51,506 nucleotides of DNA from Candidatus Woesearchaeota archaeon. Lineage in GTDB: Archaea; Nanobdellota; Nanobdellia; Woesearchaeales; JBDRGA01. The notes under the pieces are model-generated. The model was not told the DNA's origin, did not search any database, and was given only the letters and a program-made list of their open reading frames with translations. The DNA is taken from positions 1 through 51,506 of the forward strand of contig JBDRGA010000056.1 of the NCBI GenBank assembly GCA_043818175.1, in the 5' to 3' direction. The position numbers and the translations under genes are program-made. Of this stretch, positions 25,011 through 32,209 are shown piece after piece (position 1 is the first letter of the stretch; each line of letters begins with the position of its first letter).

Positions 25011-25019
25011 GGAAATGAC
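25011..25019 (+). repeat. Left target-site duplication GGAAATGAC
   Basis: Identical to 32201-32209 and directly abuts the left TIR. Confidence 0.9.
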
Positions 25020-25166
25020 GGCTTTGCACAAATAATGCTGTTTGCACAAAAAATAGGCAGAATTGCACATTTATTCGGAAAAGAAGGTTAAAATGAACAT
25101 TTTAGTAAAATGTCACTGGACACGACTACGGAGGGTATAAATATGAACCTTGATAACTATCTGTTT

Positions 25167-25739
25167 ATGGACTATTTTGTTATAGATGTAGAAACAGCGC
25201 CAGTGGACACGAAGAAGTATTCCGAGACCTTGGATGAGAAGAAAGCTGAATTCCTCAATCCACTTGATTCTAAGATTGTTGCAATTGGGCTCAGGTACAA
25301 GAATGAAAATAAAGTGTTTCTGGACTTAAAAGATGAAAAGAAGATACTGGAGGACTTCTGGGCAGAGTGGAGTTCGATAAAGAGGGGAAACCCCTCTTTC
25401 GCTGTTGTTGGATTTAATATCAATGCTTTTGACCTTCCAATGCTCGTAGGACGAAGCTTCATTCAAAACGTGTCAGTCAGTGCTTTTGTTTTAAAGGAAA
25501 TTATTGATTTACGACAGAAGCTCTCTGTTTACGCGTATAAGCCACGGGGAAAGTTAAAGGAATATGCGGAATTGGTCGGCTTAGACATCGGGCCAGAAAA
25601 TGGAAGCATGGTTGCGAATTGGGTTGAACAGGGCAAGACTGAAGTCCTTTCAAAGTACTTGAAGTCAGATTTGGAGATAACGGACGCGTTGTTCAAACGT
25701 GCAGAGAATTTAAATATCATACAAATTAATAAGTGGTAG
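25167..25739 (+). CDS. DEDDy (DnaQ/RNase H-like) 3'-5' exonuclease
   Basis: IDVET (ExoI), GFNINAFDL (ExoII), YLKSDL (ExoIII); start could be 25110 or 25143. Confidence 0.82.
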   Translation: MDYFVIDVETAPVDTKKYSETLDEKKAEFLNPLDSKIVAIGLRYKNENKVFLDLKDEKKILEDFWAEWSSIKRGNPSFAVVGFNINAFDLPMLVGRSFIQNVSVSAFVLKEIIDLRQKLSVYAYKPRGKLKEYAELVGLDIGPENGSMVANWVEQGKTEVLSKYLKSDLEITDALFKRAENLNIIQINKW

Positions 25740-25746
25740 GAAAGAC

Positions 25747-26256
25747 ATGAACCAGATATTTCAATATCCAATCAACGAGAAACTGTCAGAAGCAGTCCTG
25801 TTTATTCTAAAGAATACAAAGGCCTCGAATATTGGACGAAAGAAACTTGCGAAGCTGCTTTACTTTGCAGATTTCAAACACTACAAGAAGACTTACAACT
25901 CAATCACAGGGGAGCAATATAGTAGATGGGAATACGGGCCGTTTCCCAAAAAACTCTATCCAACTCTCGACTATCTGAAAGCAAAAGGGCAAATCAAAAT
26001 CGAAGATGTAAAGTATGCAGAGGAGAAGATTGGCAAAAACATGACCATCCTGAAGACGTTTGAACCGACACACCTCTCGCAGGAAGAACAAGACGATATT
26101 CTTAGCATCTTGGCCAAATTAGGTTCATTCACAGGGAAACAGCTAGAAGATTTGTCTCACGACGACACACCCTGGCAAGTAACTGGTGAGCAAAATATCA
26201 TAGATTATGATTTAGTGTTTTATAGAGACGAGGAAACAATTGAGCAGGTAGAATAA
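25747..26256 (+). CDS. Panacea/SocA-like (DUF4065) antitoxin
   Basis: KLAKLLYFAD...ITG..Y....YGP...LEDLSH.DTPW. Confidence 0.85.
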   Translation: MNQIFQYPINEKLSEAVLFILKNTKASNIGRKKLAKLLYFADFKHYKKTYNSITGEQYSRWEYGPFPKKLYPTLDYLKAKGQIKIEDVKYAEEKIGKNMTILKTFEPTHLSQEEQDDILSILAKLGSFTGKQLEDLSHDDTPWQVTGEQNIIDYDLVFYRDEETIEQVE

Positions 26257-26257
26257 A

Positions 26258-26671
26258 GTGGACTCTGAATACACAGTATTAGAGTCTCCTGACTTTTATA
26301 AGCACTATAAAAAAGTCCGCAAGAAATATAAACATACGTTTGACAATGATTTTAAGCTAGCAATCCAAGTTATCACCAAGAAACTTGCAATTCTTAATGG
26401 TAATTACTTGAACCTCCCAGGGACGCCAAAGACGGTTGATGGCCTAGGAGAAAAGGCTACGCATGCAGTGGTCTACACACGAGTTCACATAAGAGAAGCA
26501 CAAGACAAGGTGGGGAGGCTTGTCTACATTGTCGATAAGTCGCGTGAAAGGATATATCTAATAGATGTATACTACAAGTCAGAACGGGAAGACCCCGACA
26601 AAGCAATCTGTGCCAAAGGCCACATGGACTATGATGCTTTCATTGAAGCCGAAGAGAAACAAAAAGAATAG
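26258..26671 (+). CDS. Putative RelE/ParE-superfamily toxin
   Basis: F.KHYKK, GRLVY, IYLIDVYYKSE; 1 nt after the Panacea gene. Confidence 0.65.
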   Translation: MDSEYTVLESPDFYKHYKKVRKKYKHTFDNDFKLAIQVITKKLAILNGNYLNLPGTPKTVDGLGEKATHAVVYTRVHIREAQDKVGRLVYIVDKSRERIYLIDVYYKSEREDPDKAICAKGHMDYDAFIEAEEKQKE

Positions 26672-26769
26672 GACGAAGACAACAAATAGTCAACACGAGG
26701 TTACCAGATAACGAACAGGCGATATTATTGTGCGGGTTTTAAATATAGGAAGACCTACGTTTAAATACC

Positions 26770-30566: not shown

Positions 30567-30573
30567 TCTGAGT

Positions 30574-30780
30574 TCACCAATTTATTCTCCATTCTTGAAC
30601 AGTTTTGCTCTGTGATGTCAATCTTCTAATATATCGGAGCGTAGCGAGCTTTCTAAGATGCGACCTTGCTGTCGCCCAGCTTATTTTGGTTGCCTGAGCA
30701 ATCGCATTAGTATTGCGTGATGCGTTATGACTGGCTAAGTACGCAATGATTGCTCTGTCTATATGGTCTAGGTGATTCAC
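30574..30780 (-). CDS. Winged-HTH DNA-binding protein
   Basis: DRAIIAYL...TNAIAQATKISWATARSHLRKL. Confidence 0.75.
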   Translation of the reverse strand: MNHLDHIDRAIIAYLASHNASRNTNAIAQATKISWATARSHLRKLATLRYIRRLTSQSKTVQEWRINW

Positions 30781-31058
30781 AAGACAATCCTCTGAAACTT
30801 ACAGGGTTGGGTACCATTTTGTTTTGCTTCAATAGTGAACTTGACTAAATCACCTGGAGTTAGATTTAGTCTGGTGGCTATTAGTTTTGGTATGCGCACA
30901 AATAGCTGCCCTCGGTTCACTCCCACTTTTGCCGTTCCTTGTTCTGGATAGCTTCCTTCTTTTATTTCTTTTATGTCTTTCTCTCGTTCTTCCTTTGAAG
31001 GAGGCGTTAGTTGTTTTTTATCAATCGTGACTTTGTGTCGTGGCATATTGAATATCAT
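30777..31058 (-). CDS. AbrB/MazE-type DNA-binding protein
   Basis: GQLFVRIPKLIATRLNLTPGDLVKF. Confidence 0.75.
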   Translation of the reverse strand: MIFNMPRHKVTIDKKQLTPPSKEEREKDIKEIKEGSYPEQGTAKVGVNRGQLFVRIPKLIATRLNLTPGDLVKFTIEAKQNGTQPCKFQRIVL

Positions 31059-31157
31059 ATGATAACTTGTTTAAATAGGTGTCGAAATCATACGGTTAAT
31101 TATCATATGATAGATGCGAACGTTTATAAACAAAGACGTCTTACCAATCATATGATA
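31053..31157. promoter_or_regulatory. Three (T)ATCATATGATA palindromes in the divergent abrB/transposase promoter
   Basis: Copies at 31053-64, 31101-12 and 31147-57; TATA-like TTTAAATA (31070) and TTTATAAA (31123) between them. Confidence 0.8.
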
Positions 31158-32189
31158 ACTGAGAATGGTGGTGAAACACCGTCGTACAAACAAAACTGGC
31201 CAGCTTACAATCAGGCGAAGCAATCAGAAAAACTCACGCTTCTTGCTCTTCTGGACGAGTTGACCGCCCTATGCTTAGAAGAACGCCCTCAAAAACAACG
31301 TGGTAGACCAGCTAATAGCTTGAGGGATAAGGTCTTTTATGCTGTTTTACAGGCTTACAATCAGAAGGCCAGTCGTAGGACGATTAGCTATTTGCTGTTG
31401 GCGAAGCATTTGGGGTACGTAGACAAGGTGCCTCACTTCAACACTTTGTTGGGCGGTTTGAGAAACGCGAAGCTTGGCATCGTGCTTCAGAAGCTTGTAA
31501 CACTCTCTGCATTGCCATTAAAGGCGATGGAAGAACACTTTGCCGTTGACAGCAGTGGTTGGAGCACAACAAGATACGGTAGGTGGTTTGACGTTAGGAC
31601 AGGCAGCGATAGTAAGAAGCGTCAGTACATCAAGGCACACGTAAGCGTTGGAGCAACTACGAATGTCATTGCGAGCATTAGGATTACACCTTACAACGTC
31701 CACGACACGAACCCCTTCCCTGAGCTTGTAAGGGAAACGGCTGACTACTTCGACGTTAAGGAAGTCAGCGCAGACAAAGCATACCTAAGCGACTTTAACC
31801 TTAGTTTGGTTGAAGAGTTGGGTGCTGTTCCCTATATTCCCTTCAAGTCTAACAACAAGCCAGGCAAATGGGGTGGCACTGCAAGTAGAGGCCGTACCAG
31901 CAAGAGCAGGATTTGGAAGCAAATGCTCCTATTATTCACGTACCGTCCAGAAGAGTTCTCACAGCATTATCACAAGCGTTCTAACGTTGAGACAAGCTTT
32001 CACATGCTCAAACTCGTATTCGGAGGCACACTCAGAAGCAAGACGTACGAGTCACAACAGAACGAACTACTAGCCAAAGCACTCACCCACAACCTCTGCG
32101 TCCTAGCACAAGAAGCAGCCGAAACCGGAATCAACCTTTATAAAGAAAATGTGCAAGAAACACTACTTGCACACAAAATCACCATTTAA
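31152..32189 (+). CDS. IS5-family DDE transposase
   Basis: NWPAYN, PHFNTL, AVDSSG, KAHV, SADKAY, YHKRSNVETSF, QQNELL. Confidence 0.9.
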   Translation: MITENGGETPSYKQNWPAYNQAKQSEKLTLLALLDELTALCLEERPQKQRGRPANSLRDKVFYAVLQAYNQKASRRTISYLLLAKHLGYVDKVPHFNTLLGGLRNAKLGIVLQKLVTLSALPLKAMEEHFAVDSSGWSTTRYGRWFDVRTGSDSKKRQYIKAHVSVGATTNVIASIRITPYNVHDTNPFPELVRETADYFDVKEVSADKAYLSDFNLSLVEELGAVPYIPFKSNNKPGKWGGTASRGRTSKSRIWKQMLLLFTYRPEEFSQHYHKRSNVETSFHMLKLVFGGTLRSKTYESQQNELLAKALTHNLCVLAQEAAETGINLYKENVQETLLAHKITI

Positions 32190-32200
32190 AGTGCAAAGCC

Positions 32201-32209
32201 GGAAATGAC
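32201..32209 (+). repeat. Right target-site duplication GGAAATGAC
   Basis: Identical to 25011-25019 and directly abuts the right TIR. Confidence 0.9.

Follow-up and report, generated by a model that had tools for sequence, protein, structure and literature searches.

We describe here a candidate cargo-bearing transposon in the genome (1.34 Mb) of a Candidatus Woesearchaeota archaeon (assembly GCA_043818175.1). It lies in a 51,506-nucleotide stretch of contig JBDRGA010000056.1, to which we refer as the window and in which all coordinates are given unless another locus is named. The element spans positions 25020–32200 (7,181 bp), beginning with the perfect 10-bp terminal repeat GGCTTTGCAC (25020–25029, + strand) and ending with its inverted counterpart GTGCAAAGCC (32191–32200, − strand), and it is bordered by two copies of the 9-bp sequence GGAAATGAC, at 25011–25019 and 32201–32209, that agree letter for letter. 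These are the 10-bp terminal inverted repeats and the exact 9-bp target-site duplication put forward in the original prediction; the duplication surrounds the whole unit, and all 7.2 kb therefore inserted as one piece. The interior is AT-richer than its surroundings, as had also been proposed, with 36–41% GC between 25.1 and 31.1 kb compared to 44–48% in the flanks, the transposase gene itself being at 45–48%.

The passenger genes are arranged in two operons. The rightward operon (+ strand) opens with a predicted PolB-exo2/RNase H-like 3'-5' exonuclease of 209 residues (25110–25739; PF10108, E = 5.8e-11; no PADLOC match), followed by a 169-residue SocA/Panacea-domain putative antitoxin (25747–26256; PF13274, E = 2.6e-22), for which the NF047745 score of 41 bits is far under the 190-bit cut-off. 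Starting 2 nt past the Panacea gene stop is a 137-residue open reading frame (ORF; 26258–26671) without a Pfam or PADLOC match, a putative RelE/ParE-like toxin by its resemblance to RelE/ParE clusters of the ESM Atlas (features 0.93, TM 0.72). A 129-residue protein (26770–27159) with a weak winged-helix match (TrmB, E = 0.0014, under the cut-off) and a hydrophobic C-terminus recognised in the translation comes next, and the operon closes with a 189-residue putative PD-(D/E)XK-like nuclease (27343–27912), which has no profile match in Pfam or PADLOC and resembles ESM Atlas 'restriction endonuclease' and PDDEXK_14 clusters (features 0.95–0.97, TM 0.58–0.75).

The leftward operon (− strand) begins with a 93-residue AbrB/MazE-fold (SpoVT-AbrB) DNA-binding protein (30777–31058; PF04014, E = 1.5e-4, slightly below the Pfam cut-off; TIGR01439), whose gene is divergent from that of the transposase, and continues with a 68-residue winged-helix regulator (30574–30780; HTH_24, E = 2.5e-7, above the cut-off). 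Its third gene (27909–30566) encodes a single-chain protein of 885 residues with HSDR_N_2 (residues 30–118), N6_Mtase (329–598), Eco57I and TaqI_C (680–800) domains, and with the motifs DPACGSG, NPPY and D..ECK visible in the translation. PADLOC assigns it to type IIG restriction-modification (mad2, 7.5e-40; REase_MTase_IIG, 6.9e-31; one IIG model covering residues 19–354), and the predicted combination of a nuclease, a gamma-class N6-adenine methyltransferase and a specificity domain matches the type IIG make-up. The cargo as originally called thus stands for the exonuclease, the Panacea protein, the fused restriction-modification enzyme and the helix-turn-helix protein, narrowly misses the profile threshold for AbrB, is weak for the TrmB-like winged helix, and for the RelE-like and PD-(D/E)XK-like proteins finds no profile match.

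The remaining gene encodes an IS5-family DDE transposase of 345 residues (31152–32189, + strand), with further in-frame starts upstream of its ATG at 31107, 31059 and, as TTG, 31011. It sits at the right edge of the element, reads outward and ends 1 nt before the right repeat. Pfam DDE_Tnp_1 matches it at 85.1 bits (cut-off 23; E = 7e-24), and the NCBIfam IS5 model NF033579 (IS5_2) is the best of eight insertion sequence (IS) models by a wide margin. The residues D180, D255 and E327, and the series Y320-R323-E327-K334, occupy invariant columns of an alignment of 23 sequences (alignment A1); the series corresponds to Y(2)R(3)E(6)K, which we take to be a mark of the IS4 and IS5 families, and the transposase looks intact. 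It is the only one of its kind in the genome, where no second match was found. The element has no second transposase and no inner left end, nor are remains of an IS present where it begins on the left, and it is therefore not a composite of two IS copies, as the original prediction had argued from the sole transposase and its position.

Several features tie this transposase and its ends to the IS903 group. In a tblastn search of 72,556 plasmids, at least 5,000 records matched, and among the 25 matches listed most are IS903B, the commonest named match there and apparently the nearest named transposase, at 25–27% identity over 85% of the query (E ~1e-9 to 1e-10). The right terminus of an IS903B copy, read directly, is GGCTTTGTTGAATAAATC, the flanks of that copy being without a matching duplication, and the GGCTTTGTTTAATAAG ends of some relatives of the window element (L072, L024) agree with IS903B at 14 of 16 bases. 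The target duplication of IS903 is 9 bp. The termini and the 9-bp duplication place the family beside the IS903 group, in keeping with what had been suggested for the ends and duplication length, and by these comparisons it is a distant branch of IS5 with a longer transposase. Protein homologs of the window transposase reach about 50% identity at best and come mostly from contigs of Woesearchaeota and other DPANN archaea, and also from bacteria; a metagenome scan for closer relatives returned none above 50%. The best of them (L087, 50% identity) has no recognisable end.

The ends of the element extend beyond the 10-bp repeats. The whole left end (25020–25070) contains three TTGCACA boxes in direct orientation (25024–31, 25042–49 and 25063–70), and the whole right end (32149–32200), which runs into the last transposase codons, contains one box at 32189–96, one inverted box at 32167–74 and one direct box at 32149–56. 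The inverted right box was recognised by eye and differs from the core at two positions. The GGCTTTGCAC 10-mer occurs perfectly exactly twice in the window, the two copies being mutually inverted, and matches with up to two mismatches are about as frequent as expected (45 against 48). No such site occurs within 25030–32190, so that there is no inner left end near the start of the transposase gene. By our own estimate, chance would place a direct repeat of 9 bp next to an inverted repeat of 10 bp about 0.005 times in the whole window.

Further copies of the two terminal sequences were also considered. The 10-mer is present three times in the whole genome, and the third copy (C43, L002), tried as an element end, was set aside as a chance match, since it falls in a coding-like region and similarity stops at the 10-mer. 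The GGAAATGAC 9-mer is present three times in the window against 0.6 expected, and its third copy, at 1931–1939, is within a tRNA gene of 106 nt (1883–1988, − strand). That gene matches the full 71-position Rfam model at 48.6 bits and is missed by ARAGORN in bacterial mode, and so probably contains an archaeal-type intron. This gene and the best protein matches, which are in Woesearchaeota, agree with a DPANN-type archaeal host.

The layout of the window element recurs in its relatives. A homolog search gave at least 576 relatives and supplied 79 genome loci, and a metagenome scan supplied 80 more loci. All were taken with up to 10 kb of flank and scanned first for an exact 9-bp direct repeat and then for complementarity at 11 or more of 16 end bases, the right end being required to lie within 400–450 nt of the transposase match. 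Matches were found in 20 of the 79 genome loci; the same scan with the arms reversed but uncomplemented gave four, all in biased sequence and none with GGCTTTG. The metagenome loci gave 6 of 80 against none in the control, and five were kept, L159 being left out because it has no end motif. GGCTTTG-type ends, exact or with one or two mismatches, are present in 24 of these 25 relatives (19 of 20 genome loci and all five from metagenomes), L026 having variant ends. All 25 fit a 9-bp duplication, for which reason we adopt the 9-bp boundary in the window over the alternative that had been left open, a shift of 1 bp giving an 11-bp repeat and a 7-bp duplication. Including the window element, the 26 elements have a median length of 4,761 bp (range 1,802–10,914 bp), and in every resolved one the transposase is at the right edge and reads outward, everything else lying between it and the far left end. 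Homologs that bracket cargo between repeat and duplication are thus seen at 25 further loci, and two of the refuting conditions named with the original prediction, a left end close to the transposase start and homologs that do not bracket cargo, do not hold.

Archaeal hosts include Woese-, Nano-, Pace- and Micrarchaeota, Methanosarcinales and Methanoperedens, and bacterial hosts include Chloroflexia, Dehalococcoidia, Vicinamibacterales and Bryobacteraceae. The suggestion of an archaeal class is therefore too narrow, as members are present in contigs of Acidobacteriota and Chloroflexota as well as in DPANN archaea and methanogen relatives. Within the host order, the transposase family is present in 19 of 201 sampled genomes (including the unpublished G131), one copy in each. 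The middles of the duplications are A/T-rich, but the hosts are AT-rich too, and there is no sign of a fixed target. Short members that are nearly plain insertion sequences are rare among the resolvable loci: of the 159 loci, a looser scan recognised a right end in 60, among which just one (L144, 1,618 bp, with an 8/9 duplication) has a left partner giving less than 1.8 kb, and L014 is 1,802 bp long. We also note two loci with one right end and two left ends each, L122 (955 and 6344) and L064 (88 and 2513), the two left ends of a locus being preceded by the same 9-mer (CGTTGCAGT in L122, ACAAATATA in L064); these may be tandem or nested elements, or reflect duplication of the left part.

The family ends share a more elaborate organisation than the terminal repeat. 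The terminal 8-mer (positions 5–12, e.g. TTGCACAA) repeats at fixed positions, which for direct copies in the left end are +23 (13 of 26 elements) and +43/44 (6 of 26), and for inverted copies in the right end +28 or +37. Summed over the 26 elements, left ends contain 21 direct and 5 inverted boxes and right ends 6 direct and 15 inverted, compared to about 1.4 and 1.3 in the interior control. The window boxes at +23, +44 and +45 match this pattern, and the window ends are most like those of L008, also beyond the 10-mer, L008 being one of the two closest transposase relatives on the tree. By these repeats, the ends are longer and more complex than the 10-bp repeat, and are asymmetric with multiple boxes.

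Close relatives differ in what they carry. The nucleotide sequences of L023 (7406–11077) and L024 (5162–11080) are 83.6% identical over the right 1.69 kb, where the right end is preceded by the transposase gene and a small gene for a Zn-ribbon protein, and 91% identical over the left 35 bp. Their middles are unrelated: a C5 methyltransferase unit occupies one of them, and a type III-like pair of ResIII and N6_N4 methylase the other. L012 (5197–9222) has the transposase module and about 36 bp of left end in common with these two (79–92% nucleotide identity), and its cargo consists of small ORFs, with an extra 63-residue ORF between the transposase gene and the right end. To judge from these alignments the elements are modular, with ends and transposase kept and cargo exchanged. 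A 2,807-bp family member is found in five metagenome contigs (L104:1759–4565, L106:5345–8151, L108:1–2807, L109:2823–5629 and L110:628–3434) at 99.6–99.96% identity and with at least three different flanks, from which it follows that a member of the family has moved recently. The 9-mer to the left of the L106 copy is the same as that to the right of the L109 copy, which suggests recombination or assembly chimeras between copies.

The cargo was tallied over 105 non-transposase ORFs of at least 55 residues in 21 elements (the window and 20 genome loci). The commonest Pfam families are C5 DNA_methylase (five ORFs), N6_Mtase (four), HTH_45 and HTH_24 (three each), followed by Eco57I, Methylase_S, Glycos_transf_2 and MazE/AbrB (two each) and by EcoRI_methylase, MethyltransfD12, N6_N4_Mtase, ResIII and AIPR (one each). 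Per-protein scans of 40 larger ORFs add NgoFVII-like and HindVP endonucleases, GmrSD/HNH, PDDEXK_1, HEPN and ADP-ribosylglycohydrolase. By this tally and BLAST clusters, on which the assignment of counts to particular elements depends, a DNA methyltransferase is present in 11 of the 21 elements. Restriction-modification genes are therefore enriched, although the defence cargo proposed for this class of element is not exclusive: L011 carries two glycosyltransferases, a NUDIX protein and an APH-like kinase, L016 a papain-like protease with a beta-helix, and P63C and 8xMP are found as well.

A small DNA-binding gene is often immediately upstream of, and divergent from, the transposase gene in the family, and encodes AbrB with a winged-helix protein in the window element, L039 and L072 (with a weak AbrB match in L008), a Zn-ribbon in L023 and L024, and HTH_3 in L026. 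AbrB was considered as a core gene of these transposons, but the four elements that bear it are scattered on the transposase tree, the deep forks of which are unsupported. The window AbrB is 41.5% identical over 53 residues to the gene at the same position in L039, and the transposases are 43% identical, compared to only about 23–24% for the methyltransferases downstream of AbrB. In the window, the region between the AbrB and transposase genes (31054–31156) contains three exact ATCATATGAT palindromes (31054–63, 31102–11 and 31147–56), the only exact copies in the 51.5 kb, all within 103 bp. An ATG in frame with the transposase ORF falls inside every one of them, and the AbrB start, on the opposite strand, inside the first. 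Two TATA-like boxes, TTTAAATA (31070–77) and TTTATAAA (31123–30), are spaced about 26–27 nt from the second in-frame ATG of AbrB (31046) and from the transposase ATG at 31152. We considered a bidirectional promoter placed symmetrically about the first two palindromes and rejected it, as the coordinates do not fit. The AbrB-transposase intergenic regions of L039 (9700–9830) and L072 (9590–9660) contain three TAGTCTA/TAGACTA-type repeats each, in parallel to the ATCATATGAT palindromes of the window.

With these features in view, we are confident that 25020–32200 is an autonomous transposon, of IS-like build with passenger genes, from a deep IS903-like branch of IS5. By analogy with IS903 and other DDE elements, the transposase would bind the boxes at both ends and pair the ends, then cut them and link them to target strands cleaved 9 bp apart, and gap repair would produce the GGAAATGAC duplication. 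The restriction-modification enzyme and the putative toxin-antitoxin pair would plausibly protect the host and also impose a cost when the element is lost. AbrB and the winged-helix protein probably bind the three ATCATATGAT palindromes that separate their operon from the transposase gene, and such binding would control the cargo and perhaps transposition together. The candidate operators and promoters, and with them the regulation suggested in the original prediction, are assigned from gene order and the three palindromes, and we regard joint control of cargo and transposase through them as possible but rather doubtful; AbrB and the winged-helix protein may equally be controllers of the restriction-modification cargo instead.

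Population data bear on whether the element still moves. The flanks (32201–33400 and 23800–25019) gave nothing usable in a DNA search of 40 genomes of the same order, none of which is of the same family or genus, and this result is therefore uninformative. A run search returned two groundwater runs with 0.11–0.13 of the words, and four runs were examined as Logan contigs at a depth of about 2–4x. The left junction is bridged without differences by X2 record 10 (24960–25230) and the right junction by X1 record 4 (32059–32346), so that occupied junctions identical to the window are present in two groundwater metagenomes from separate studies, of 2019 and 2025. No empty-site joint of 25019 to 32201 was found in the four runs, an absence that is uninformative at this depth. 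One contig of X1 joins 22085 to 35720, and this was rejected as a loss of the element because its ends differ from the element ends and its shorter side has 21 letters. A 200-nt contig from another groundwater sample (X4 record 28) matches the left-end 36 nt (25019–25054) with four differences and one inserted base, and nothing else, and probably derives from one end of a related element carried by a different organism.

The alternative that survives best is that the element inserted as a unit and has since become fixed, a defence island retained by the host and no longer mobile, its transposase being silent or repressed. We consider this unlikely, though it deserves serious attention: the element is single-copy in its genome, the positive genomes of the same order likewise have one copy each, and the junctions are occupied in both groundwater studies with no empty-site joint seen. 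However, the transposase ORF is unbroken and retains every catalytic residue, the duplication agrees at 9 of 9 positions and the terminal repeats at 10 of 10, the missing empty allele is meaningless at the depth available, and another family member has near-identical copies at several sites. The mobility of the window element itself is inferred from the duplication and from the relatives. The recent insertion that had been read from the intact duplication is not borne out, with no empty allele seen at about 2–4x and the occupied junctions already in the 2019 and 2025 runs; the intact duplication and ORF indicate only that there has been little decay so far.

A second alternative, which we consider highly improbable, is a surrogate or one-ended mobilisation similar to that of ISEcp1 or of transposable modules, in which an IS of about 1.2 kb used a chance GGCTTTGCAC-like site 6 kb upstream and moved host cargo once. 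The short stretch of perfect complementarity (10 bp) and the lower GC content of the cargo relative to the transposase gene are as this would have it. The transposase gene nevertheless has no left end close to it, the distal left end has the family-typical direct boxes at +23 and +44 and resembles that of L008 beyond the 10-mer, and 25 relatives have the same far-left end with exact duplications. Least probable of all is a decayed composite with its left IS deleted down to the outer end, or chance repeats beside an island delivered by another route: composites are the textbook means by which IS903 carries genes (Tn903), but the left end shows no remains of a transposase, its first ORF, 90 bp in, being the exonuclease, close relatives keep about 36 bp of left end and then diverge, unlike a deletion series, no integrase, tRNA or att-like repeat accompanies the element, and the 19-nt arrangement of repeats is itself improbable.

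Several observations weigh against an autonomous transposon of an IS903-like, cargo-bearing family. The perfect terminal repeat is only 10 bp long, the extended arms of 25 nt being 76% complementary, and for the window element we found neither an empty site nor a second copy or an excision product. The NF033579 score of 131.6 bits is just below the curated cut-off of 140, a near miss that fits a divergent IS5 branch, and the closest transposase is only about 50% identical. The toxin and PD-(D/E)XK labels come from ESM Atlas look-alikes and are leads only, and the regulator-palindrome scheme is a proposal drawn from the sequence. In the survey, 59 of the 79 genome loci and 75 of the 80 metagenome loci lack a definable pair of ends, as a result of short contigs, a left end beyond the flank, or the lack of an end motif, and about half of the genome loci are without a recognisable right end, so that the view of cargo as the rule draws on the resolvable minority. 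Plain insertion sequences in multiple copies would also tend to break assemblies and to be under-sampled.

Two features of the left flank are of note. The ORF to the left of the insertion (24394–25068, − strand) has, as listed, a GTG start within the transposon left end. An ATG at about 24927 is the likelier start, in which case the element is about 92 bp upstream of that gene and would cut it off from its former upstream region. Further left, at 23297–24346 (− strand), are two adjoining ORFs with signal-peptide-like N-termini followed by low-complexity sequence rich in Tyr, Gly and Asn.

The broader reading of the family is that it forms an unclassified IS903-like clade crossing both domains, in which cargo carriage is the normal state, the ends are minimal, asymmetric and multi-box at about 40 bp, the transposase module is terminal and the middle is exchangeable; this we put forward tentatively, as a proposal that falls a little short of our leaning to it. 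In such a clade the transposase module would often include a small divergent DNA-binding gene, the exchangeable middle would be a major vehicle for restriction-modification and defence genes in DPANN archaea, methanogen relatives and soil bacteria, and in the subset with AbrB and the winged-helix protein shared operators would tie expression of the cargo to that of the transposase. What stands out is the family-wide carriage of cargo and, as new findings, the asymmetric multi-box ends and the modular exchange of cargo seen in the comparisons above. If the reading is correct, a low-copy IS903-like lineage would be routinely moving stretches of 1–10 kb, with genes for restriction-modification, toxin-antitoxin and other functions, across phyla of both archaea and bacteria. 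It would offer a simple one-protein route for the spread of defence genes, notably in DPANN archaea with their tiny genomes and few known mobile elements, and would further blur the boundary between insertion sequences and transposons. A compact, cargo-tolerant, single-protein system with ends of about 70 bp would also be a candidate tool in archaea.

IS5 is among the largest of the IS families and, to our knowledge, is treated as cargo-free. In the open-access literature, with supplements, ISfinder and TnCentral outside the search, we found neither IS5/IS903-like elements with passengers nor this family, and supplements could list some; that the family is truly undescribed is accordingly something we hold as nearly as probable as its opposite. 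The window element shares with IS903 and IS903B a DDE transposase with Y(2)R(3)E(6)K, GGCTTTG termini and a transposase gene that reaches the right end, and with IS903 the length of the duplication. It differs in that the family transposases have 345–445 residues rather than 307–322, in the low protein identity to IS903B given above, in its 7.2 kb with eight passenger genes compared to 1.06 kb without any, and in asymmetric extra subterminal boxes, none of which were noticed in the IS903B copy that was read.

Among archaeal elements, the IS-like transposons of thaumarchaea have one or two genes (Krupovic et al. 2019). The aloposons of Heimdallarchaeia are archaeal transposons that bear cargo (Wu et al. 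2022, PMC8813620), and as described there they integrate at tRNA genes, contain tandem giant genes encoding 3,000–6,000 residues and a ParA-like ATPase, and are unrelated throughout to the element described here. In bacteria, restriction-modification genes, including type IIG, have been found within terminal inverted repeats and short duplications, with empty sites shown in sister genomes (Furuta et al. 2010, PMC2853133). The duplications of those units are 8 bp and their repeats 26–65 bp long, and one unit has just a decayed COG3677 (IS1595-type) transposase motif (PMC2853133). They are also bacterial single cases, as opposed to a family with an intact IS903-like transposase here.

The ends of Tn7 contain several transposase-binding repeats that are arranged differently at left and right, and in this respect they are similar to the multi-box ends of our family. 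Tn7-like transposons are likewise single units with variable cargo rich in defence genes (Benler et al. 2021, PMC8649781). They differ in using TnsABC with a target selector and in being site-specific, whereas the window element has a single DDE protein and gives no indication of a fixed target. Its build corresponds to a recognised category, the transporter IS (tIS) of ISfinder and TnCentral, an IS with passenger genes (10.1101/2021.05.26.445724; PMC9330008), which according to a review of IS6 is present in 'a number of IS families' (PMC7986276), and for which an authoritative database paper lists passenger-bearing members only in IS1595 and IS66. The window element has what characterises a tIS, with one transposase, terminal inverted repeats and a target duplication around passenger genes, and differs in being IS5/IS903-like. 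By its predicted make-up it is best called a tIS or small unit transposon that is IS903-like at its ends.

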